Assembly: GCA_030651475.1 (NCBI GenBank)
Contig: JAUSEW010000018.1
Coordinates: 1 to 49,022 of the forward strand
Direction: 5' to 3'
Source: Candidatus Levyibacteriota bacterium
GTDB lineage: Bacteria; Patescibacteriota; Microgenomatia; Levybacterales; UBA12049
Length of the DNA: 49,022 nucleotides
In this document: one piece after another, positions 4,631 to 32,347 of the stretch
Layout of the letters: each line of letters opens with the position of its first letter
Position numbering within the stretch: the first letter of the stretch is position 1
Program-made: the position numbers and the translations under genes
The notes under the pieces: generated by a model
Database searches by the model: none
The model's input: only the letters and a program-made list of their open reading frames with translations
What the model was told of the DNA's origin: nothing

Positions 4631-5994
4631 TAGCATTTAAAAAAGTTAATCCTGTTTGCAACTCCTTCAGCTTGAACAGGTACGCTAAGTATTACCTTAC
4701 ACGCTTTATATATTTTTTCTTTGTTGAATATTCCATCCAAAATATCTTGTTTTACATTAGCTTCCGGATAATTTGCTCCGTGGGCAATGATAATAGTTTT
4801 ACTTGAAATGGCGTCATTTGTTAAAACTTCTTTATCGTATAGGCCTTTTGTAAAAAAATATTCATGAGCATCTCTAATATTATCTAGAGGAGGAGTGCGG
4901 GTTAATATGAGAAGAGCTGGAGTAATGTCGTTAACTCCGTAAAGAAATTTCGGTTTTTCTTTTTTAATGACAGCAATAATTTTATTTATATCATTAATTT
5001 TTTGTAAATTTCTATATGAAGAAATATATGTATAAAGATTAAGGGTAAGGAAAGTAAAAATAATAGTAGGTATTACGAGTTTTTGAATACGAAGCTTGTT
5101 CTTGGAAAATTCAAAAAATTCATACAAAGAAAGGCACAAAAAAGGAATTATGAAGTTAAGATATAAATAGTATACGTCTTGATAGTAAAGGAAAAAGGCA
5201 ATTCCCCAAAGAGAAACAGCGGCAAAAAATTTGTTTTTCTTAAAATTTAACAGATTAAAAATTAAAAGAACAAAGAAGACAAAATCTTTTGTTATGAAAA
5301 ACCATCCAACTTCTGTTTTTGAAATTCCGGCAGGACGCATAAGAGAAAAACCAAAAATATCGTTAAGGAATTGTTTTGGGGCAATAATTAAGGAGGGAAG
5401 AAGAACAATAATTAATGTTACGACAAAACCGATACTAAACTGCAATAATTTCTTCCAATTTCTATCTATTAAAAGTATAGTAAAAAAAGATAAAGGTATA
5501 GGAATAAAATATGCTTTGGTTAATAAGGAAAGAGCAATTAAGGCGCCAGAGATAAGAAATTTATTTTTTTTGAATAAGAAAAAACCTAATACTGCGAATA
5601 GAGAAGCGGTAAAAACGCCGGTCTGATGATCAGAAGTAGACAGAACCATAAAAGAAAAAAGATAAAGTAAGGAACTTATTGTAGAGATAAAATTATTTTT
5701 CGTGGAATGATAAGCCGTTAAATAGATCAGAAAAGCTACAGCTATGACTTCTATCGTGGGCGTGAGGTAAAAAAGATTGATATTGTCTCCAGTTATAAAA
5801 TAATAAAATGATGAAATATATCCAAATAGGGGGAAGTTGGAGAAAAATAAATCTTTGTATAATATTTTCCCGTGGATAATTTGGTATGCGATATTATAAT
5901 AAATATTAGTATCGGAAAGTCTTATTCCTAAATTTGTTACTTTTGCGGCAAAAAATATAAGAATAAAACTAAGAAGGGGAATAAAACGTATCAT
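4627..5994 (-). CDS. GT-C fold (ArnT/PMT-like) membrane glycosyltransferase
   Basis: Many TM helices, SDTNIY..LYKDLFFSNFP loop, conserved LLTK. Confidence 0.7.
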   Translation of the reverse strand: MIRFIPLLSFILIFFAAKVTNLGIRLSDTNIYYNIAYQIIHGKILYKDLFFSNFPLFGYISSFYYFITGDNINLFYLTPTIEVIAVAFLIYLTAYHSTKNNFISTISSLLYLFSFMVLSTSDHQTGVFTASLFAVLGFFLFKKNKFLISGALIALSLLTKAYFIPIPLSFFTILLIDRNWKKLLQFSIGFVVTLIIVLLPSLIIAPKQFLNDIFGFSLMRPAGISKTEVGWFFITKDFVFFVLLIFNLLNFKKNKFFAAVSLWGIAFFLYYQDVYYLYLNFIIPFLCLSLYEFFEFSKNKLRIQKLVIPTIIFTFLTLNLYTYISSYRNLQKINDINKIIAVIKKEKPKFLYGVNDITPALLILTRTPPLDNIRDAHEYFFTKGLYDKEVLTNDAISSKTIIIAHGANYPEANVKQDILDGIFNKEKIYKACKVILSVPVQAEGVANRINFFKCY

Positions 5995-6968
5995 TTTTTA
6001 ATTCTTAAAATAGCCCATCTAATCTTATCTAGCACTTTGTAGATTTCATAAATGAATGGATTAATAACTAGATCAAAACTTCCAATAAATTCGATAAGTT
6101 GTCCTCCATAACCTTCTTTGAAGCGATGGAATCCATACCATGGATCATTTTTATCTGGATTAGGTCCGAGCGCTCCCCACATATCAAATTTTTTTAAACC
6201 AAGCTTTTTCCCAAATTTAATAGCTTCCCACATCATTAGATTTGATGCCATAGTTTCTCTATGAAGACTGCTCGAAGCGCCATAAGGATAATAAAGAGTA
6301 TCGTTATAAACAAAAAGAATCCAGGCAGTTAATATCTGATTTTTATATTTTGCTAATAAAAGCCGTGCAGTTAATTTATCCGTATTCAATTTTTGATTTT
6401 TGATTTTTGATTTTTGATTTTTTAACGTTTCCCACATCAGCCTATGATAGTTTTCTGTGTGCGCATAGAAATTTTGACGTTTAGTTGTTTCTTTTGTAAG
6501 TTTTAGATATTCCTCAAAAGCTTTATCCAAATTATCTTCAATTATTTCAACGTTATGTTTTTGAGCTATCTTAATATTATATCGAGTTTTTGGATGCATT
6601 GATTTTAGTAAATCTTCTTCACTTTTTGTTAAATCCAAAACAAACGTATATTTGGTAAAAAGAGGATGAAAAGATGAACGCAGACCTAAATTTGAAATTT
6701 TAAATTTTAAATTTGAATTTTTTAATACATTTGGTTCAAGTTGGATAAAAATACATTTCTCTTTTTGTCCAATCTCGCGAAGTCTAACTATCATTTCTTT
6801 TGTTGGCATAGGACTTTTGGGTAGATATCCGACCGTCCAAGGAGTATGCGGAATTTTGTGGATTGTTAGCTGAAATCCATTTTCTCTTATAACTTTTAGT
6901 CCTGTTTTTTTTCTAAATTCGCCCCATTCCAAAGATTGCATGGGATAAATTGAATTATCGTTACTCAT
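5991..6968 (-). CDS. FemAB/FemX-family lipid II aminoacyltransferase
   Basis: QSLEWGEFRK, KTRYNIKIA, YYPYGAS, FDMWG and GFHRFKEGYGG. Confidence 0.88.
   Translation of the reverse strand: MSNDNSIYPMQSLEWGEFRKKTGLKVIRENGFQLTIHKIPHTPWTVGYLPKSPMPTKEMIVRLREIGQKEKCIFIQLEPNVLKNSNLKFKISNLGLRSSFHPLFTKYTFVLDLTKSEEDLLKSMHPKTRYNIKIAQKHNVEIIEDNLDKAFEEYLKLTKETTKRQNFYAHTENYHRLMWETLKNQKSKIKNQKLNTDKLTARLLLAKYKNQILTAWILFVYNDTLYYPYGASSSLHRETMASNLMMWEAIKFGKKLGLKKFDMWGALGPNPDKNDPWYGFHRFKEGYGGQLIEFIGSFDLVINPFIYEIYKVLDKIRWAILRIKK
6390..6417. repeat. Perfect heptamer tandem (TTTTTGA)x4 inside femAB
   Basis: Read directly; encodes NQKSKIKNQK. Confidence 0.9.
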
Positions 6969-8836
6969 AGATATTCTGGTAAATTTCTATCTAAATTTAC
7001 AGCATGTAAATTATTTGAGATTACTTTTTCCGGTAGTTCCAAGAGAAATCGGGATATTATATTGGATGTTCGTTGTCCAAAGAACATTCTGCGGGACGCA
7101 AAAGTTAAAAAGAGTTTCTCTTTAGCTCTTGTCATTCCCACGTAGCATAAGCGTCTTTCTTCCTCTAATTCATTTTTATCCATAAGGCTTCTTTGATGAG
7201 GGAATAATCCTTCTTCCATCCCAACCATAAAAACTATGGGAAACTCAAGTCCCTTAGCGGCATGAAGAGTCATTAAGGTTATCGCATCTTTTTTGCCGCC
7301 ATCTTTGGCAGGTTTGTCTGGCATATACTCTTGTTCGACTAAGGCAATATTTTCCAGAAACTCCGTAAGATTTGGAAAGGCAACTGCAACCGAACGAAGT
7401 TCTTTGATATTCTCCAGCCTTTCCTTCTCCTCTTCGTCGCTTTTATCATATAACGAAAGATAATCAGTTGCTTGTAATATTTTATCCAATATATCAAGAG
7501 TTATAATATTTTTCAGATCTTTTATCTTGTCTACCAATTCCAGGAACTTATTCATTCTTCCCTTGCCCAATTTACAAGTCCTTTTATATGAAACCATATC
7601 TTTTGGATTCTCCAAAAATCTAACATATGCCAGAATATCTTTTATCTCCTTTCTTTCATAAAATCTAGTACCGCCAACCAGAACATAAGGTATGCCTTGA
7701 TGTAGTAATACTTCCTCAATTACTCGGGATTGAGCATTAGTTCTATAAAAAATCGCTACATCAGTAAATTTCCAGCCAGAGGTTGGTCCGCCTTTGGCAG
7801 AAAAATTTGAGCTTTGATATTTAAGATTGTTGATTTCCCTAACTATAAATTCCGTTTCGTCCTGCTCATTCCTTGCTTCATAGATTATTATATTTTCTCC
7901 TTTTGGATTCTTGGTCCAAAGAGATAGGACAGGATGAGTAGTATTATGTGAGATAACCGAAGAAGCGGCATCCAAAATTTTCTGTGTAGAGCGATAATTT
8001 TGTGAAAGGGCAAATGTTTTTGCACCCTTGAAGTCCTCTTTGAATTTCGTAAGATTAGTAAAATCCGCACCCCGCCAGCTGTAAATGCTTTGGGAAAAAT
8101 CACCAACAACGCAAATATTTTTCCACTTAAGAGAAAGAGTCTTGGTTAAATAGTATTGCGCATGATTTGTATCTTGATATTCATCCACCATAATATATTG
8201 AAAGCGGTTCTGATATTTTTTAAGGATTTCCTCTTCTTTATTAAAAAGTTCTATGGTTTTTAATAAAAGGTCGTCGAAATCCAAAGCATTGTTCTCTTTG
8301 AGAAGTTCTTGGTATTTGATATAAACTTTGGCTGCTTGCTCCTGAAAATGTCCTCTTGCGTATCTGGGATACTCAAGTGAGGTTATTAATTCATTCTTTG
8401 CTTGGGAAATTGCGCCCAATATGGAAGAGGGTTTATAATCTTTGGTTGGAATATTTAGTTTCAGCATAGCTTCTTTGATGGCATCCAGCTGATCGGTAGT
8501 ATCGTATATAGCAAATTTTTCCGAAAGGCCAAGATATTTTCCTTCTATTCTAAGAATTCTGGCGCATAAGGAATGAAAGGTCGCGATTAATGGTTTTCCT
8601 TTCGTGATAAATTTTCCAATTCTTTCTTTCATTTCATTTGCCGCTTTATTGGTAAATGTCACCATTAATATATTGGAAGGATCGATATTTTTTTCTTGTA
8701 TTAAATAAACAACTTTATAAGTTAAAACTCTGGTTTTTCCTGATCCGGCGCCTGCAAGTATGACCATTGGACCGTCTGTTTGCAAAACCGCCTGCAGCTG
8801 TTCTGAATTTAGCTCCTTGAGAAAGTCTTTTTGCAT
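6965..8836 (-). CDS. pcrA: PcrA/UvrD SF1 DNA helicase
   Basis: AGAGSGKT, VDEYQDTN, QNYRS, TLHAAKGLEF and EERRLCYVGMTRA. Confidence 0.93.
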   Translation of the reverse strand: MQKDFLKELNSEQLQAVLQTDGPMVILAGAGSGKTRVLTYKVVYLIQEKNIDPSNILMVTFTNKAANEMKERIGKFITKGKPLIATFHSLCARILRIEGKYLGLSEKFAIYDTTDQLDAIKEAMLKLNIPTKDYKPSSILGAISQAKNELITSLEYPRYARGHFQEQAAKVYIKYQELLKENNALDFDDLLLKTIELFNKEEEILKKYQNRFQYIMVDEYQDTNHAQYYLTKTLSLKWKNICVVGDFSQSIYSWRGADFTNLTKFKEDFKGAKTFALSQNYRSTQKILDAASSVISHNTTHPVLSLWTKNPKGENIIIYEARNEQDETEFIVREINNLKYQSSNFSAKGGPTSGWKFTDVAIFYRTNAQSRVIEEVLLHQGIPYVLVGGTRFYERKEIKDILAYVRFLENPKDMVSYKRTCKLGKGRMNKFLELVDKIKDLKNIITLDILDKILQATDYLSLYDKSDEEEKERLENIKELRSVAVAFPNLTEFLENIALVEQEYMPDKPAKDGGKKDAITLMTLHAAKGLEFPIVFMVGMEEGLFPHQRSLMDKNELEEERRLCYVGMTRAKEKLFLTFASRRMFFGQRTSNIISRFLLELPEKVISNNLHAVNLDRNLPEYL

Positions 8837-8876
8837 AAAGTATAATGAGAATAATTGACTTTGTTATTGTAGCATA

Positions 8877-8925
8877 TGACCCTTCGACGTTGCTCAGGGT
8901 CATACTGAGCTTACCGAATGTATGA
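8877..8925. repeat. REP-like double-hairpin element (copy 1)
   Basis: TGACCC-TTCGACGTTGCTCA-GGGTCA overlapping TCATAC-TGAGCTTACCGAAT-GTATGA; same layout as 32279-32329. Confidence 0.8.
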
Positions 8926-9592: not shown

Positions 9593-10679
9593 AAAAGTAC
9601 TTATTATTTTCCTAATTCTGCTTCTGATAGTAGTTGGCAAAATAACAATCGAAGCAGTCAAATTTTCTCCATTTTTATTTCAGCTGATTTTCACTAAAGA
9701 TATAAATCTTAGCAAATCTGATGACCATTTAAACATATTGCTTTTGGGTATTGGCGGGGGAACGCATGAGGGGCCGGATCTGACAGATACGATAATTTTC
9801 GCCAGTGTCGATATGAACAACAACAAAGCAATTCTTGCATCTATTCCGAGAGATCTATGGAGTCCTGATTTAAACGCAAAAATAAATACAGCCTATTCAG
9901 GAGGAGAAGCAATAAGGAAAGGCGGCGGAATTACTCTCGCAAGCAGTGCTATTTCAAAGATATTAAATCAACCTATAAATTATACAGTTAGAATTGACTT
10001 TAAAGGATTCGTAAAAGCATTGGATATTTTGGGAGGTCTTGATGTAAACGTTGATAAAAGTTTTGATGATTATGAATATCCAATTTCAGGTAAGGAAGAT
10101 GATCTTTGCGGGCACACTCAAGAAGAAGTGTCAGCTCTTGCCACTGCATCTTCACAACTTGAAGCATTTCCTTGCCGTTATACTAATATACATTTCGATA
10201 AAGGATTACAGCATATGGATGGAAAAACTGCTTTAGAATTTGTCAGATCGCGTCATGCGCAAGGAGAAGAGGGTACTGATTTCGCAAGATCTAAGAGGCA
10301 GGAAATTATTATAAAAGCTCTTAAGGATAAAGTATTTTCCTTGCAAGTTCTGGCGAATCCAATAAAAGTAATTGGCGTTTATACTGCAATTAAAGATAGC
10401 GTAGATACCAACATAAAACAGGAGGAGCTTGATGATTTTGTCCGCTTGGCGCAAAAAATGAAAAACGTAAAAATAGAAAGCGCGGTTTTGGATTATGGCG
10501 ATGATCAAACGGGGAGACCTGGACTTTTAATAAATCCACCAATAAGTCAAGAATTTAATTATGCCTGGGTTCTTATCCCAAGAATAGGAAACGGCAACTT
10601 CTCCGAAATACAAAAATTTGTTGCGTGCAAAATAACTATTGGTAATTGTGTGATTTCCCAAAATCCCTTATTTAATTAA
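9585..10679 (+). CDS. LytR-CpsA-Psr (LCP) family transferase
   Basis: TM anchor, LTDTII, SIPRDLW, KINTAY, FVRSRH and DFARSKRQ. Confidence 0.9.
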   Translation: MHKKVLIIFLILLLIVVGKITIEAVKFSPFLFQLIFTKDINLSKSDDHLNILLLGIGGGTHEGPDLTDTIIFASVDMNNNKAILASIPRDLWSPDLNAKINTAYSGGEAIRKGGGITLASSAISKILNQPINYTVRIDFKGFVKALDILGGLDVNVDKSFDDYEYPISGKEDDLCGHTQEEVSALATASSQLEAFPCRYTNIHFDKGLQHMDGKTALEFVRSRHAQGEEGTDFARSKRQEIIIKALKDKVFSLQVLANPIKVIGVYTAIKDSVDTNIKQEELDDFVRLAQKMKNVKIESAVLDYGDDQTGRPGLLINPPISQEFNYAWVLIPRIGNGNFSEIQKFVACKITIGNCVISQNPLFN

Positions 10680-12981
10680 CCTTATAAATTTTCGTAGAGC
10701 CAGATTTAAAAATTGTTTTACCAAGTTTGGAAAATTTTTCCTCATAAAGATTTGGATATTTTTGTCGCTCCAAATCCCCAACATAGATATATGAAATATT
10801 ATATTTCTTGATTAAATTTTTAACATTATCTAATTTAGAATTATCAATGTTATTAACGGACCCTTTTATTATTAACTTTTGGTTTGGATATATTAGATTA
10901 GGATTTTCAATAGTTTTTTTGTTTAGCTCAAACAAATTTCTCCAATCTCCAAACTTAATCTCAGCAGCAATTTTAATTAGATAGTCTCCTGATTGAACGG
11001 TATAAAATTCTTCAGACGAACTATTTATATTTAATTCATATATTTTTTGAACATCCAAAATCCTTGGAGCGGGGATGTCATAAGTTCCGCGCCATAACCA
11101 CTCATGTACTGTCCAGCCCAAAACTGTCGGAAGACCTGTATTCGCAGATATTCTGGCATAGTCCGTATAGGAATCTCCTTGCGCTTCCAAAATAACAGGT
11201 TGTCCTTTGATATTTTTGTTTATCCATTGAATTGCCAAATAATCATTTGAATAAAGAGAATCTAAGTAAGATGTTCCGTTAAGTCCTTTGTAGGAATTTA
11301 ATCCTGCGTAATAAGAATTAATTGCGAAATAAGGATAAATTCCTACGAGGAATAATTCCATCACTCCAATTATTAATACTGCCAATTTTAAATAAGAATG
11401 TTTAATATCTAAAAATATTTTAAAAATTATGTATCCGGAAGAAATAGATAGCATTATGAAAGATTCGTAAACAAGTTTAAACATAGTATTTGCTCTATAG
11501 TGAGCAGGATAAATGTCTTTCAAATACACAAATTCCGGAACAATTATAAGAATTGTAGATAAGATTATTAGAATTCCAACGAAGATATCGCTAGCGTTTA
11601 GCGTATAGCGTTTAGCGTTTAGTTTTAGGAAAATAATAAATGATATAACCCAGAAATAGAAAAATCCGTAAAGGATTACTAATTGCCAAAGAGGAGATTT
11701 TTGACAGTGGTTTGGTTCGAAAAGAAAAGGACCGACATATCCAATGTCAGTCAAAAACTTTGGCGCGCAAAGAATGCCAATATTGGAGACGAAAGGCGTA
11801 AAATTTTTGGAAAAAGGAAGAGAGAAAAGAAATGTTCCTCCGATAAGAAATAAAAGATTCATATATATTCCGGATTTAGGCCTAACATAAAAAATAACAA
11901 GAGCAGTGAGCAGGAAATAGATAATTGCGTCCCAGACGTTTGTCATATACATTACCGCTAATAAAAAACTTACCAAAAATAAAGTTGGAATCTTAAAATT
12001 TTTGGAATAAAAAGATGAAAGTAAAATAGCTATCATAAGTAGAACGAAAGGTATATCGAGAACATGGCCGTGTAGATCGGAAACAACGAAAGAATAAATT
12101 GGGAATTCGTGGATAGTATTAAAAATAAAACGAGTGGCATTAGGATACCAGTATGCATTTGGGAAATTTTGAGGAGAAAATATAAGCTGCCAAAATGGGA
12201 CAGGAGCACCGTTCGTATAAGGAGTAAAAAATGAATAGATAGAGTGGATGTTTCCTCCTATAGTTGCAAGAAAAGCAATTATTAGTCCGCCGCCAATAGC
12301 GTATAGCGTATAACGTTCTCGCCCTGAGCGAAGCCGAAGGGTAGCGTTTAGTTTGGAAAGAAGGTTTATTCCGATGGAAAAGCTGGCAGTAAAGGTTAAA
12401 GAGAATAAACTTGCTATCATGAGATTATAAGTTATAGAAGAAGGGATTTGAGATATTCTTGTCAAAAGAGCAGTTACCAGATGGCCGAAATAATAATAGT
12501 TTATGGGGAATGGGGTAAACCACATATCACGCGGCGGAAAATAATCAGCCCGTAAAATGGAATTTACGAATCCAAAATCCATAAATTTCTCCAGTCCATG
12601 GATATCAGGCTGAAATCCTCTTATATATGACCAAAAGACAAGAGCTGCCAAAAAGATTGCCTCTTCAAGCAAATAGAGTCTCCAATTTTCCTTAAAATCT
12701 AATTTCGTTAAGAATTGAGTTTTTTTGGCAACAAATAGATTAATAATCAAGCAAATTACACAAACAAGAATAATAGTAGGCATTTGAAATGGAAGAACTT
12801 TTAATACCCCAAGTAAAAAAACTATATAACTTAAAACTGCTATGCCCAAAATTCTTGAGAAAATATATCCTCTGTCAGAGAAATTAGAAAAAATAATTGT
12901 AGTCAGAGGTAGAAAAATAATTCCGATAGCAAAAAACATTGGCCACCATTTAAAAACGTAAGATAAATCAGATAAAAACAT
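10672..12981 (-). CDS. DUF2298/YYY-type GT-C-like membrane protein with an inserted LysM domain
   Basis: EKFMDFGF, INYYYFGH, IHEFPIYSF..DLHGH, NTMFK and GWTVHEWLWRG; LysM at about 10864-11004. Confidence 0.85.
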   Translation of the reverse strand: MFLSDLSYVFKWWPMFFAIGIIFLPLTTIIFSNFSDRGYIFSRILGIAVLSYIVFLLGVLKVLPFQMPTIILVCVICLIINLFVAKKTQFLTKLDFKENWRLYLLEEAIFLAALVFWSYIRGFQPDIHGLEKFMDFGFVNSILRADYFPPRDMWFTPFPINYYYFGHLVTALLTRISQIPSSITYNLMIASLFSLTFTASFSIGINLLSKLNATLRLRSGRERYTLYAIGGGLIIAFLATIGGNIHSIYSFFTPYTNGAPVPFWQLIFSPQNFPNAYWYPNATRFIFNTIHEFPIYSFVVSDLHGHVLDIPFVLLMIAILLSSFYSKNFKIPTLFLVSFLLAVMYMTNVWDAIIYFLLTALVIFYVRPKSGIYMNLLFLIGGTFLFSLPFSKNFTPFVSNIGILCAPKFLTDIGYVGPFLFEPNHCQKSPLWQLVILYGFFYFWVISFIIFLKLNAKRYTLNASDIFVGILIILSTILIIVPEFVYLKDIYPAHYRANTMFKLVYESFIMLSISSGYIIFKIFLDIKHSYLKLAVLIIGVMELFLVGIYPYFAINSYYAGLNSYKGLNGTSYLDSLYSNDYLAIQWINKNIKGQPVILEAQGDSYTDYARISANTGLPTVLGWTVHEWLWRGTYDIPAPRILDVQKIYELNINSSSEEFYTVQSGDYLIKIAAEIKFGDWRNLFELNKKTIENPNLIYPNQKLIIKGSVNNIDNSKLDNVKNLIKKYNISYIYVGDLERQKYPNLYEEKFSKLGKTIFKSGSTKIYKVN
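11592..11626. repeat. Heptamer array (TAGCGTW)n
   Basis: TAGCGTT TAGCGTA TAGCGTT TAGCGTT TAGTTTT; encodes KLNAKRYTLNA. Confidence 0.9.
12297..12355. repeat. Heptamer array (TAGCGTW)n interrupted by a 24-bp REP-like element
   Basis: TAGCGTA TAGCGTA TAACGTT [CTCGCCCTGAGCGAAGCCGAAGGG] TAGCGTT TAGTTTG. Confidence 0.85.
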
Positions 12982-16348: not shown

Positions 16349-17987
16349 TTTTCATTTTTTTAAAGATAAAAACAGTTGGTCTATCGAATACATTTGCTGT
16401 TTCCTCGAGTGAAGAGACCGGATTTCCTAGATAGGTTATCTTGCAAAAAATATCACAAGGTGTTTCATAGACTTTTCGATAGCCTAATTTATTATTAAAC
16501 AATAAACTATAAAATTCATTTCCATTTTTGAATTTTTGTTTATTTAAAAGGCGAGTTTTCATAATCCGTTGACTTGGAAGAATTATATAGTCAGTTTTAT
16601 GAAAAAGAGAATAAAGCTCACCTAATTTATTATTATCAGGTTGTTCAAGGTCATAAAAATTAAATAAAGTAATATTTGGAAAAAATGAATTAAAGGGAAG
16701 TATTCCCAAATCGTAAACTTCACTTACGATGAGTGCGCTACTGGGAATATTTTGCTTTGCAAAGTTAACAGCAGATATCCTAGCATCACCACTCATAAAA
16801 GCAGTTTTAAAATAAGAGAAGGCAAAAATTATCGTAGACATACCTAATATCAGAAATATAATTTTAAAAAAAATCCTTATGGCATTTATTTTTACTTCTA
16901 ACAAGTTTGTTATTGATAAGGAGATTATAAGATAGATAAATGGTAAAGTCGGCATCATATATCTTGTCCACTTAGCGAATAAAAATGCTTGAGGAAGGAA
17001 TAGTATTAAGTAGCAAGTATTAAGTATTAAGTATTGGGGATTTTTAGTTTTTATTCCTTTGAGAATCAAATAAAAAAACGAGAAAATAAAAACAATTGTT
17101 AAAGCTGGATTTAGAAGAAAAGGGTAAATTTTTGTGAATTGGAAAATAATAGGAGCAGAATTAAAAAATTCACCAGTGTAGAATACGGGTAGAGTTCCCA
17201 ATGCGACTGATGATTCGTATTTTAGGCTGGATAAAAATGACCCAAAATCCAAAAATGCGAAAGGAGAAGTTAAAAATAATATAATTATTGCCGGAATAAA
17301 AACTATTAATGAATCAACGATTAAACCCTTTATTAGAGGTAATGGTTTTAGTCTATTTTTAAGATTATTTATTAAAACTAAAAATAGAATATATAAAAAA
17401 ATAAAACCTCCTGATATTTTCGTAGATAATAAAAGCCCAAAAATAATACCTATTATCAAAAGCAGTTTCTTGTTGCCCGAGTTTAAAAATAATAAAGAAA
17501 GATAAAAGATAACTAACGATAAGAATGTTATCCACGTTTCAAATGTAGAGAAATGGGCGAATTGAATAAGCCCAATACTAAAGGTAGCCAAAAAGGCGGA
17601 AAAAATTCCTGTTTTTTTATCTTTTAATGTTTTTCCTGTAATGTAAATTAGGGGAATAATTAACAGAGAAAGAAGAGCAGAATAAAATCTTCCTATAATA
17701 ATTGATTCTTCAAAAGATGCTTGGGTTATAGGTTTTAAAGAAAAAATTACATTGATTATTATAGTACTAAAATAATTTAAGTATATTGGAAAATTTCCGT
17801 AGGCAAAAAAATGAGGATTCATTTGTAGAGGAAAATTAAGTTGAGAAGCCGCAGAAGCAATATTACGTTCATCCGGGTGGAAATAAAAAGGAGCGCCCCA
17901 ATTAAGATTATAAAATCTTAAAAACCCGCCAATTAATATTAATAAAATTATTATTAATGTTTCCTTATTTTTTAAGAAATTTTTCAT
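16341..17987 (-). CDS. GT39/PMT-like GT-C glycosyltransferase, paralogue of its neighbour
   Basis: FHPDER, NPHFFAYGNFP, RYMMP and VFDRP. Confidence 0.82.
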   Translation of the reverse strand: MKNFLKNKETLIIILLILIGGFLRFYNLNWGAPFYFHPDERNIASAASQLNFPLQMNPHFFAYGNFPIYLNYFSTIIINVIFSLKPITQASFEESIIIGRFYSALLSLLIIPLIYITGKTLKDKKTGIFSAFLATFSIGLIQFAHFSTFETWITFLSLVIFYLSLLFLNSGNKKLLLIIGIIFGLLLSTKISGGFIFLYILFLVLINNLKNRLKPLPLIKGLIVDSLIVFIPAIIILFLTSPFAFLDFGSFLSSLKYESSVALGTLPVFYTGEFFNSAPIIFQFTKIYPFLLNPALTIVFIFSFFYLILKGIKTKNPQYLILNTCYLILFLPQAFLFAKWTRYMMPTLPFIYLIISLSITNLLEVKINAIRIFFKIIFLILGMSTIIFAFSYFKTAFMSGDARISAVNFAKQNIPSSALIVSEVYDLGILPFNSFFPNITLFNFYDLEQPDNNKLGELYSLFHKTDYIILPSQRIMKTRLLNKQKFKNGNEFYSLLFNNKLGYRKVYETPCDIFCKITYLGNPVSSLEETANVFDRPTVFIFKKMKND

Positions 17988-19263
17988 TTTTGTTTATTAT
18001 TTTAGCGATTTTTTCTCCAAGCTCTACTGCATAATTTGTTCCTCTATCCCAAGGGTAAACTTGTTGGATATTAGCAAGATATACATTGGGAATTGGAGTT
18101 TCAAAAGGAGGCATTATTTTTGAATAATTAATCGGGATAATAGGTTGTGAAAAAGGAGCCTTAAAGAGCTGATAACTGATAATAGATAGTTTATAGTTAG
18201 GATTTATTTTTTTCAAAAAAGGATCATAGATTTTCAATAATGCTTCAGAGCCCATTTTCATATGCGGATGATCATAAGGCAAATAGTTTCCTAAATAGAT
18301 TATATGTTCATTATTATAATATTTTTTATCCATAAAATTTGTATGTTCGACAACAGCCATTATGGGTGAGTTTTTTTCGCATATACTTAACCAATACGTA
18401 CCGTCTTCTAAAAACTGTTTTTTTAAACGTAATACAAGATTTAAAGAACCCAATCCTTTAAGATTTGTTAACTTATTTTTATAATCATTTGGAAGTTGAG
18501 GCGCAATTTTAATAAACGAGAAAGAAGGTAGAGTAACAACGACTGCATCAAATGTTAGCGTATAGCGTTTAGCGTCTAGCGTATAGTTAATTGAAAGTTT
18601 TTCATTTCTTTTTAGTTCAGTTACTTCTGTATTAAAAAAAACTTTTCCTCCATTTTGTTTAATTTTTTCAACAAGAGCATTTGCGAAGTTTAAAAATCCT
18701 CCTTCCGGATAGGCAAGGGAAGAAGTTCTTTTTACCAGTCTAGCCCAAAACCATGCAAGAGATATGTCATTAGCGTATTTGCCGAATTTATTAATAAGCT
18801 GAGGTTCCCAAATTTTCTCGTAAGCATTTTTTCCCATTGTTTTAGAAAGAAAGTCCGCAGCTTTTATTTTTTCAAGAGGTTTCCAAAAGGGGTTATAACG
18901 AAGCAGCCCGATAACTGCCGCCATTCTCAATTTTTCGTATAAATTAAGCTTTGGGAAGATCAAAACTTTATTTAAAGAATCAAGTTGATAAATATTACTA
19001 TCCAAATAAACAGAAGTTTTTGACCTTTTTATTAAAAATTTATAACCAATTTCTTTTGCAAACCCTAAAACACTTTTGTCATTTGTAAACCAATGATGGT
19101 AGTGTTTTTCCAAAGACCACTCCCACTCTTTTTGAGAAAATCCTACCGCAAGTCCTCCAGGACTATCATCTTTTTCAAATAGAGTAACTTGATGATTTTT
19201 TTTCGTAAGATAATAAGCTGCGGACAGACCTGTAAATCCAGCTCCTATAATTGCTATCTTCAT
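17965..19263 (-). CDS. FAD-dependent oxidoreductase (amine oxidase/protoporphyrinogen oxidase-like fold)
   Basis: IAIIGAGFTGLSAAY, LEKHYHHWF and YPWDRGTNYAV. Confidence 0.8.
   Translation of the reverse strand: MKIAIIGAGFTGLSAAYYLTKKNHQVTLFEKDDSPGGLAVGFSQKEWEWSLEKHYHHWFTNDKSVLGFAKEIGYKFLIKRSKTSVYLDSNIYQLDSLNKVLIFPKLNLYEKLRMAAVIGLLRYNPFWKPLEKIKAADFLSKTMGKNAYEKIWEPQLINKFGKYANDISLAWFWARLVKRTSSLAYPEGGFLNFANALVEKIKQNGGKVFFNTEVTELKRNEKLSINYTLDAKRYTLTFDAVVVTLPSFSFIKIAPQLPNDYKNKLTNLKGLGSLNLVLRLKKQFLEDGTYWLSICEKNSPIMAVVEHTNFMDKKYYNNEHIIYLGNYLPYDHPHMKMGSEALLKIYDPFLKKINPNYKLSIISYQLFKAPFSQPIIPINYSKIMPPFETPIPNVYLANIQQVYPWDRGTNYAVELGEKIAKIINKNEKFLKK
18556..18590. repeat. Heptamer array (TAGCGTN)n
   Basis: TAGCGTA TAGCGTT TAGCGTC TAGCGTA TAGTTAA; encodes NYTLDAKRYTL. 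Confidence 0.9.
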
Positions 19264-32278: not shown

Positions 32279-32329
32279 TGACCCATTCGATAAAACTCAG
32301 GGTCATCCTGAGCGAAGTCGAACGGATGA
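32279..32329. repeat. REP-like double-hairpin element (copy 2)
   Basis: TGACCC-ATTCGATAAAACTCA-GGGTCA overlapping TCATCC-TGAGCGAAGTCGAAC-GGATGA. Confidence 0.8.
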
Positions 32330-32347
32330 AAAATTAAAAATTATTAG

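Follow-up and report, generated by a model that had tools for sequence, protein, structure and literature searches.

Is a short palindromic insert within an array of 7-nt repeats the trace of a link between two repeat-making processes, or do two unrelated kinds of repeats share one tolerant protein loop? The question is raised by positions 12296–12355 of contig JAUSEW010000018.1 (assembly GCA_030651475.1) from Candidatus Levyibacteriota bacterium, a tiny inhabitant of groundwater. This whole contig of 49,022 nucleotides is the window of the present analysis, and it is contig C4 of what we call the own genome (G000; 910,733 bp, 36 contigs, 37% G+C); G, C and L numbers stand below for genomes, contigs and loci. 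Heptamer units in a gene for a membrane protein are interrupted here by a 24-nt mini-element, F1, and an earlier note on the window had proposed that the two repeat types are mechanistically linked, with arrays acting as landing pads or as by-products of element insertion and repair. We found F1 beside period-7 arrays far more often than expected by chance, with sharp boundaries and at a fixed junction. The explanation that we favor, tentatively and at slightly less than an even chance, is that slippage-type heptanucleotide repeats were in place beforehand and serve as preferred landing sites for the precise, duplication-free insertion of singlets resembling repetitive extragenic palindromes (REP).

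On the + strand, positions 12296–12316 read ATAGCGT ATAGCGT ATAACGT (Tandem Repeats Finder, TRF: period 7, 3.0 copies, 92% matches), followed by a T, by the 24 bp CTCGCCCTGAGCGAAGCCGAAGGG at 12318–12341 and by TAGCGTT TAGTTTG at 12342–12355. The insert consists of a 4-nt tag, CTCG, and a 20-nt core, CCCTGAGCGAAGCCGAAGGG, on the + strand, and the opposite strand encodes (T)LRLRSGRE. The host gene (10672–12981, − strand) encodes a DUF2298 membrane protein of 769 aa with a C-terminal LysM domain (Pfam PF10060, E = 3.9e-96; PF01476), and orthologues were present in 31/31 relatives searched. On the coding (−) strand the locus reads CTAAACG CTA[24 bp]AACG TTATACG CTATACG CTA, translated as ..KLNA-TLRLRSGRE-RYTLYA..; the units at 12296–12316 (coding ACGTTAT ACGCTAT ACGCTAT) give RYTLYAI and those at 12342–12355 give KLNA. 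If the 24 bp are taken out, the translation becomes LNAKRYTLYA, near the LNAKRYTLNA array that occurs with identical DNA at four loci (C4:11592, C18:70779, C21:33728 and C21:38439). The first of these is a second array of the host gene itself (site 2; 11592–11622, − strand, CTAAACG type, 4.4 copies by TRF, confirmed by alignments), which has no insert in the window. The observation from which the earlier note started, i.e., heptamers, 24 bp and the heptamer phase resuming with the frame kept, was borne out by sequence, TRF and translation, and so was the gain of LRLRSGRE in the protein; more precisely, a K is replaced by T plus LRLRSGRE, a net gain of 8 residues in frame. No insertion or deletion variants were seen over 11400–12700 in three runs, which were represented only by assembled (Logan) contigs from one study and so say little.

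The palindromic character of the insert is modest. The CCCT..AGGG stem that had been pointed out is present, but it is only 4 bp long and the predicted fold uses a different 4-bp stem; as a DNA hairpin, the 24-mer is not unusually stable (minimum free energy −3.3 kcal/mol, z = −0.6). No Rfam match was found over 12100–12550 at E ≤ 1. As a family, on the other hand, F1 is well defined. Its core is TGAGCGAAGYCGAA between short complementary bases, and we curated 21 copies in the own genome, those between genes being inverted doublets of two F1-like arms and those inside genes being singlets. The window holds three core matches at ≤3 mismatches against 0.12 expected, a number reached in 0/100 shuffles. 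The strict 20-nt core (≤1 mismatch) gave 120 matches in 40 of 121 genomes sampled from the order, and the reversed pattern, used as a control over the same 121 genomes, gave none. The tag is CTTG, CTCG, CCTG or CCCG (CYYG) in 54/114 copies and some other 4-mer in the remaining 60; most CYYG-tagged copies are inside genes. The 24-mer is free of stops in all three frames in which it is read and its length is a multiple of 3.

Co-localisation beyond chance, the check on which the earlier proposal was to stand or fall, was evaluated with the element always delimited as the 4-nt tag and the 20-nt core, and with adjacency to an array judged by one unchanging rule. Three of the seven strict F1 copies of the own genome adjoin an array, compared with 0.40% of 300,000 random positions. 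Among relatives, a first sample with one locus per genome gave 7/30 array-adjacent copies against 0.81% of 76,991 positions in the same loci, the array-positive loci lying in seven different genes, and a second sample gave 11/77. Pooled over 39 genomes, 18/107 copies adjoin a period-7 array (binomial P ~1e-18, uncorrected for kinship); the count covers 107 of 113 matches, since five at contig ends were left out and G022:C65 was seen separately in locus L093. A similar picture comes from the flanks alone. The 7-mers on both sides of CYYG-tagged copies match at ≥5/7 positions in 29/54 cases (background 1.8%) and at ≥6/7 in 16/54 (background 0.25%), whereas copies with other tags reach ≥5/7 in only 4/60. 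At the window insert itself the flanking TAACGTT and TAGCGTT match at 6/7. Repeat-flanked copies number 33 and their flanks are all distinct.

The boundaries of the guest are sharp. If the insert is taken as the 20-nt core only, the flank-match signal is gone (mean 2.0/7); since the match appears only with the 24-nt unit, the guest is exactly 24 nt long. The junction is equally regular. In arrays of the TTGANTT type, 15 of 16 F1 copies, all at distinct loci, share the phase and orientation TTGANTT/CYYG-core/TTGANTT (P ~2e-11), and entry into arrays of the CTAAACG type (TAGCGTT on the other strand) occurs at the analogous point. Within these arrays F1 is translated in at least two frames (TLRLRSG and PSTSLRA). 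A stop-free 24-mer whose length is a multiple of 3 is tolerated at any phase of an in-frame array, so the coding frame does not restrict the phase; the regularity must then originate in the way F1 inserts or in the shared ancestry of entire composites. Judging from these sequences, selection at the protein level cannot make a fixed junction phase.

The arrays are abundant in their own right. TRF returned 178 period-7 rows in the own genome against 27 in a third-order Markov control, and 71 such rows in 171 kb of relatives' loci. There are 93 different units among the 178 arrays, and copy numbers cluster at 4–5 (100 rows) and around 8 (5 rows). Arrays with ≥3.5 copies lie within crudely called genes in 86 of 113 cases. 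All in-gene arrays that we saw are in frame, their odd unit being the one that removes an in-frame stop; the stop-removing change TAA>TAT is common to four loci and TAA>GAA to four others, which suggests that arrays themselves are copied between loci. Between two congeners, 41 indels of ≥4 residues were counted. Arrays account for 11 of them, GC hairpins recognized by rule for 7 and hairpins recognized by eye for another 8; a length of 21 nt was seen most often (9/41). With arrays and GC palindromes making up about 26 of these 41 indels, the expression "loop-diversifying" used in the earlier note is fair as a description of the outcome.

Orthologues with array only, element only or neither had been suggested as a way to order the events, and all three kinds of alleles exist: array only in G022 and G001, hairpin only in the FemAB-family gene of three genera, and neither at L048. 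At the insert-bearing site of the window (site 1), G022, which belongs to another family, reads CTAAACG CTAAACG CTACACG CCATACG CTA, with no insert and an equal number of units, while the array in the two congeners is of another type (AATTTAA/AATTAAA) but equally long. At C18:40795 the array is accompanied by a 33-nt palindrome in the own genome and stands alone in G001, the gap being exactly 11 residues (33 nt) and the unit number equal; at C9:50155 the own genome has array plus F1 and, again, G001 has the array only. The reverse is seen at L031, L035 and L046, where relatives have array plus F1 and the own genome has the array alone (two units at L046). One loop can also host different pairs: L028 of G097 has an AGCCAAN array with F1, and the same loop of the own genome (C11:23283–23312) has an AAAATTG array with a 30-nt palindrome of another family, F2. 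A further site is that of the FemAB-family gene at 5991–6968, W-E-T-L/x/xxNKL, aligned over 30 genomes, where most genomes have a 4-residue loop. AAAA[A/C]TC arrays occupy it in the own genome, G014 and G002, the own array being 21 nt longer than that of G002; related units are found in G008 and G010, and G022 has an AAAAGTC array with nested F1-type hairpins. Depending on the related genome, this site holds an array, F1-type hairpins or the two together. The array of the own genome is AAAAATC with 4.9 copies (6389–6422, − strand; 100% matches by TRF, with Pfam and the 30-genome alignment identifying the gene and the site). As far as these comparisons go, the commonest pattern is that of an array that was there first and a guest that came later, or was precisely removed, with the unit number unchanged.

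Both repeats can be separated at the level of whole genomes. Over 120 genomes, counts of F1 and of TTGANTT arrays correlate (Spearman 0.48), F1 being present in 25/36 array-rich and 14/84 array-poor genomes. Nevertheless, six array-rich genomes have no F1, e.g., G033 with 51 pattern hits, and G065 and G068 have five and three F1 copies, respectively, with no TTGANTT arrays; therefore, each repeat can exist without the other. Taken with the array-only orthologues of equal unit number and the lack of a 7-bp duplication described below, this separability made "landing pad" the better fit of the two mechanisms first proposed. "By-product of insertion and repair" is not favored, although three gains or losses of whole composites still speak for it.

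We hypothesize that repeats are made in this Levybacteria-type lineage by two distinct processes, and that insertion is the step that couples them. Heptamer arrays would be slippage-type repeats in tolerant protein loops, changing in 21-nt steps and evolving in concert. F1 would be a REP-like mini-element, a CYYG tag with a 20-nt core, occurring as 24-nt singlets and as intergenic inverted doublets. Singlet entry would be precise: the DNA would gain 24 nt (8 codons) and nothing else, the target would not be duplicated and no footprint would be left. The preferred point of entry would be the border of two neighboring units in an array that is already there, always with the same orientation and phase. 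Arrays may be favored because tandem units misalign, which would expose single strands, and because they offer the same short homology on both sides. This could be exploited by a single-strand "peel and paste" enzyme or, alternatively, by template switching (short-patch conversion) among arrays in which a copy is already present. IS200/IS605-type single-strand transposition provides a precedent for entry that is scar-free and duplication-free. Insertion, as opposed to precise excision, is the direction of change that we infer.

Candidate enzymes for such a putative single-stranded intermediate would be the small GIY-YIG nucleases and two IS200-like Y1 transposases (PF01797) encoded in the own genome. 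It has seven small GIY-YIG open reading frames, mostly among tRNA genes, with F1-like hairpins in the 5′ flanks of 3/7, and at least four F1 copies, in G016, G113, G068 and G065, lie 4–85 nt from small GIY-YIG genes among the matches listed (150 of 711). A search of the sequences in the Protein Data Bank with one of these nucleases returned only the UPF0213 proteins 1zg2 (E = 2.7e-8) and 1ywl (E = 2.6e-7). Three reverse transcriptases are also encoded in the own genome. As a separate observation on gene order, GIY-YIG genes of 81–98 aa alternate with tRNA genes at L053/L056 (G000:C17:250372–252992), L054 and L052, with GC hairpins in the spacers.

Several results weigh against this explanation. 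No enzyme was tied to F1 by these comparisons: GIY-YIG match counts correlate with F1 counts per genome only modestly (rho 0.38), no F1 was found beside the two Y1 transposase genes of the own genome, whose flanks hold other palindromes, and the published SRM search pattern gave three hits in the own genome against 0–2 in ten Markov controls, with the F1 core in 0/3. A motif common to all insertion points was sought by reading the flanks and none was found. The adjacency counts are uncorrected for shared ancestry. Precise excision accounts for the array-only alleles as well as insertion does. The FemAB site bears a hairpin with no array in G001, G017 and G011 (three genera), at one junction and with three different loops. 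At L048 a relative has array plus F1 and the own genome has neither, i.e., a joint gain or loss, and whole composites were likewise gained or lost as 69 nt in G001 at the orthologue of C6|112311 and as 105 nt in the own genome at C17|188023. Three further cases fit copying of composites as well as they fit targeting: site 2 of the G114 orthologue holds the identical 24 nt at the identical junction (GCTA/../AACG; FLKLNA-TLRLRSGRE-RYTLNASD), where the window is bare; the composite 12297/8–12353 recurs over its exact span in run X1, where one further contig shows 8 differences from it and another shows 6; and the two identical F2 composites of the own genome agree even in their flanking AAAATTG units. 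Finally, the association does not extend to GC-rich DNA in general. The 178 arrays have a GC-rich island of any kind within 10 bp in 33 cases against 35.2 expected from 2000 random placements, and 913 GC-rich perfect hairpins share an exact 7-mer on both flanks in 4 cases against 2.8 in a flank-swap control.

Since generic GC islands and hairpins show no enrichment, the link with arrays is specific to a family. For F1, the proposed link between repeat types is upheld by the enrichment, the sharp 24-nt boundaries and the fixed junction; it does not hold for GC hairpins generally, nor for F2 in relatives. The F2 palindrome (30 nt, centered on GGGATCCC) is nested in arrays in 3/3 copies of the own genome, two of them being the identical composites mentioned above and the third a variant, but F2-type palindromes of five other genomes are in arrays at 0/6 loci. 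A third palindrome, F3, has one of about five copies in an array. Two other scans added little: exact resumption of an array over 9 nt after a gap of 14–60 nt was seen in 4 cases against 0.7 in a unit-swap control that reached a maximum of 4, the test being too strict, and a run-pair scan returned 14 adjacent run pairs, none informative on hairpins.

The recurring composites are best considered together with the community sequenced in run X1, possibly the sample from which the window derives. The bare array at 11592–11626 has about 13-fold excess contig depth in run X1 (2186 versus ~160). Around it, at 11576–11626, many loose ends of low agreement begin exactly at the array borders in the same run. 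The loose ends and the depth indicate that the same array sequence occurs in many other contexts of the community. Recurring composites agree with short-patch conversion, or with template switching, among arrays whose units are alike.

A different reading of the same cases is that the mobile unit is the whole composite, heptamers with F1 between them, whose arms grow by slippage and stay behind after the hairpin is lost; arrays would then be a product of the element and not its target. The fixed junction and orientation are what this predicts. The same can be said of the units present or absent as wholes between congeners (69 and 105 nt), of the exact span over which 12297–12353 is matched by two other contigs, of the same unit occurring at two sites of one gene family, and of 14-nt direct repeats, TTGATTTTTTATTT and TTGACTTTTGAGTT, around the element in L118 and L032; the correlation of counts between genomes (rho 0.48; 25/36 versus 14/84) agrees too. 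However, the flanking units follow the local array variant (TTGATTT, TTGACTT, TTGAGTT or TAGCGTT) rather than a single carried sequence, array-only orthologues keep their unit number, and most of the 93 units among the 178 arrays never occur with F1. The six array-rich genomes without F1 and the 25/54 tagged copies without repeat flanks are also difficult to accommodate. We regard this reading as unlikely, though it deserves to be kept in mind. Similarly unlikely is a broader, att-like docking, in which arrays would give a 7-nt register for the scar-free entry and exit of many guests, so that loops are rewritten and frames stay intact. Its guests would be not only F1 (24 nt) but also the 30–33-nt palindromes and the ~450-bp IVP-family cassettes located between inverted arrays, each hopping between arrays of like unit.

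Selection might suffice with no coupling at all, if arrays and hairpins arose independently and coincided in the small number of short loops where insertions are tolerated and where an array often takes up all the space. Indeed, the inserts are found in loops of membrane proteins and enzymes, arrays and no fewer than four families of palindromes have struck identical loops time and again in different genera, and both kinds of repeats together make up the majority of indels (~26/41) between congeners. But arrays occupy at most 11 of the 41 variable sites, yet 29/54 tagged copies are repeat-flanked; nor can selection bring 15 of 16 copies into a single phase or fix their relative orientation, given that a stop-free 24-nt insert keeps the frame anywhere and that at least two frames are actually used. 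This account therefore seems improbable to us.

Still less probable is that each insertion or excision duplicates 7 bp and that arrays are piled-up footprints of such events. It would explain why matching 7-mers bound 29/54 tagged copies, why a single flanking repeat with no further periodicity is seen in L122, L146 and L166, and why array copy numbers fit ~1.7 + 3n. On the other hand, flanks match at ≤2/7 in 16/54 tagged copies whose cores are near-perfect, unit numbers are equal in hairpin-bearing and hairpin-free alleles, and three successive frame-breaking events would be needed per site in essential genes. Moreover, the arrays at a given site are common to several families of genomes with single-base unit changes, AAAA[A/C/G]TC, as expected of old arrays that evolve in concert. 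A 7-bp target duplication as a general rule was ruled out: tagged copies with a flanking match of ≤4/7 amount to 25/54, copies outside arrays show no such duplication, and filled and empty sites have equal unit numbers. Finally, array plus hairpin could be maintained by selection as a signal written into genes and acting in DNA or RNA, for instance in protein binding or in processing; stems and core kept at one orthologous site in three genera while the loop changes, and inverted arrays that bracket small IVP-family genes, are in its favor, but it is hardly credible given no Rfam match, a weakly folding 24-mer, unrelated host genes and a presence that varies freely among congeners.

Returning to REP-like singlets that land in pre-existing arrays, the nearest known counterparts of the guest are the REP and REPIN elements with their RAYT (IS200-like Y1) transposases. 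According to Bertels & Rainey 2011 (PMC3116915 and PMC3337134) and Di Nocera et al. 2013 (PMC3733652), these are short GC-rich palindromes with an unpaired 4-nt tag at one end, occurring as singlets and inverted doublets in tens of copies per genome, some of them within genes in frame. F1 has a CYYG tag, in contrast to GTAG or CGTC as given for REP in PMC3733652. It also departs from that pattern in that the singlet stem has only 4 bp, most tagged copies are in genes and the Y1 transposase genes of the own genome are flanked by other palindromes. Palindromic elements of Rickettsia are reportedly inserted in frame in unrelated housekeeping genes and read through as loop residues (a finding of Ogata et al.), and F1 resembles them as an in-frame palindromic insert in unrelated genes. 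Those elements are ~100–150 bp long, against 24 nt for F1 singlets, and we know of no association between them and tandem repeats.

A second likeness is with the system of Chenal et al. 2025 (PMC11893778), whose account includes single-domain GIY-YIG Ssn nucleases that cut single-stranded DNA beside their hairpin repeats. These repeats (NTS/SRM) are, as described there, small and genome-wide, with orientation-defining bases just 5′ of the palindrome, and in the own genome F1-like hairpins adjoin some single-domain GIY-YIG genes of 81–98 aa. Nevertheless, F1 does not fit the published SRM pattern, and the nuclease that we searched with resembles UPF0213 and was not placed in the Ssn family. An Ssn-type nuclease may work like the putative F1 enzyme; this is an analogy of function and not of membership.

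The host repeats have precedents as well. Heptanucleotide repeats are over-represented in prokaryotes, and polymerase slippage over a 7-nt contact was proposed to explain them (Mrazek et al. 2007, as cited in the introduction of PMC4679880); the over-representation is also noted in PMC4692102. In-gene repeats, as summarized in PMC4679880, mostly have units in multiples of three. The arrays studied here share with the known heptanucleotide repeats an abundance far above expectation; they differ in that 86/113 are in genes with variant units that remove stops, and in that they host nested palindromes. Preference of one mobile element for one class of repeats is not new either. Insertion sequences are said to insert into REPs (Tobes & Pareja 2006), and some insect non-LTR (long terminal repeat) retrotransposons are specific to microsatellites. 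In all these cases one repeat class is the preferred insertion site of another; with F1, a non-coding unit of 24 nt is lodged in a heptamer array that is translated, and no transposase is linked. An insertion sequence that targets REPs, ISPpu9, is treated in PMC8450116. In section 7 of PMC3733652, a few REP families are described as regularly nested in one specific other repeat; the hosts there are palindromes, whereas those of F1 are tandem heptamer arrays. That section is the nearest account returned by our literature search, which brought up no paper on palindromic mini-elements lying within heptamer arrays. The apparently new part is the specific nesting at a fixed junction in translated heptamer arrays. 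The term undescribed system, for which the earlier note saw here the best candidate of the window, is too strong: over-represented heptanucleotide repeats are a known kind, as are REP-like palindromes read in frame, and the data do not amount to a dedicated system.

Arrays and GC palindromes represent about two thirds of indels of ≥4 residues between two congeners, which makes them the main source of change in protein loop length in this minimal-genome lineage. Duplication-free entry into a translated microsatellite at a fixed junction gives a manageable system in which to ask how REP-like singlets move, a question unsettled for classical REPs, and whether tandem repeats act as recombination registers. 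In practical terms, these inserts inflate and fragment alignments of housekeeping genes in the Candidate Phyla Radiation (CPR), and masking them is advised in phylogenies and structure models.

Other F1 copies of the window are intergenic. The long form at 32279–32330 (+ strand) consists of two F1-like inverted arms, CCCATTCGATAAAACTCAGGG and CCTGAGCGAAGTCGAACGG, and a second nested stem, and its DNA fold is stable (−8.5 kcal/mol, z = −2.8). The near-identity of its core with that of the in-gene insert, previously given for 32307–32322, was confirmed with 2 mismatches in 16 against 32310–32325. Directly after it, AAAAATT is repeated 2.1 times at 32329–32343 (TRF). A long-form variant with 2 core mismatches and a 9-bp stem lies at 8874–8905 (− strand) between pcrA and the next gene. 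pcrA itself (6965–8836, by UvrD-helicase domains) contains a GC-rich palindrome of another family at 7771–7800, followed by decayed TTTGANN units. The adjacency noted earlier in pcrA and at 32279 is weak at both sites, with decayed units at the former and a short repeat at the latter.

Some copies in other genomes have contexts of their own. The same F1 variant is inside two array types in G114 (L050, L153). A subfamily with tag TTTA and flanks ..GAGAAG / GAATC.. keeps its context in at least six genomes (L025, L033, L125, L147, L165, L168) and seems to represent a single orthologous locus, or part of some larger conserved element, and not a series of independent insertions. The F1 core is also nested in another palindrome, CCCGCC GAAG [F1] GCGAAG GCGGG, at L179–L181 (G085), at L133 (G020) and in the own genome at C17:95262–95300; at L180 and L181 this outer palindrome around the core is itself bracketed by direct repeats. 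A weak F1-like match (2 mismatches) at about position 328 of G000:C11, in an apparent 16S rRNA gene, may be due to chance.

Elsewhere in the window, a CTATACG/CTAAACG array at 18556–18586 (− strand) lies within a 42-nt (14-residue) stretch of an amine-oxidase-like gene (17965–19263), and the entire stretch is absent from the G001 orthologue. Outside the window, a 23S-rRNA-IVP-family gene (G000:C9:9749–10063) lies between AGCGTTTAG-type units on its upstream side and CTAAACGCT-type units on its downstream side (L187:1410–1460 and 1838–1872), i.e., between inverted heptamer arrays of the same unit as the window array. A second IVP-type layout of this kind is found at L189 (C6:1067–1393), with CTGATAA/GTTATCG units. 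An IVP/Avd-like four-helix gene (C6:48521–48820, below the Pfam cut-off) adjoins a reverse transcriptase gene at C6:49135–49755 (L190, G000:C6:47021–50320; cf. L061), with an F1 long form at C6:48915 between the two genes. A second IVP/Avd-like and reverse transcriptase pair is located at G000:C27:652–1832, and the layout of these pairs resembles that of a diversity-generating retroelement.

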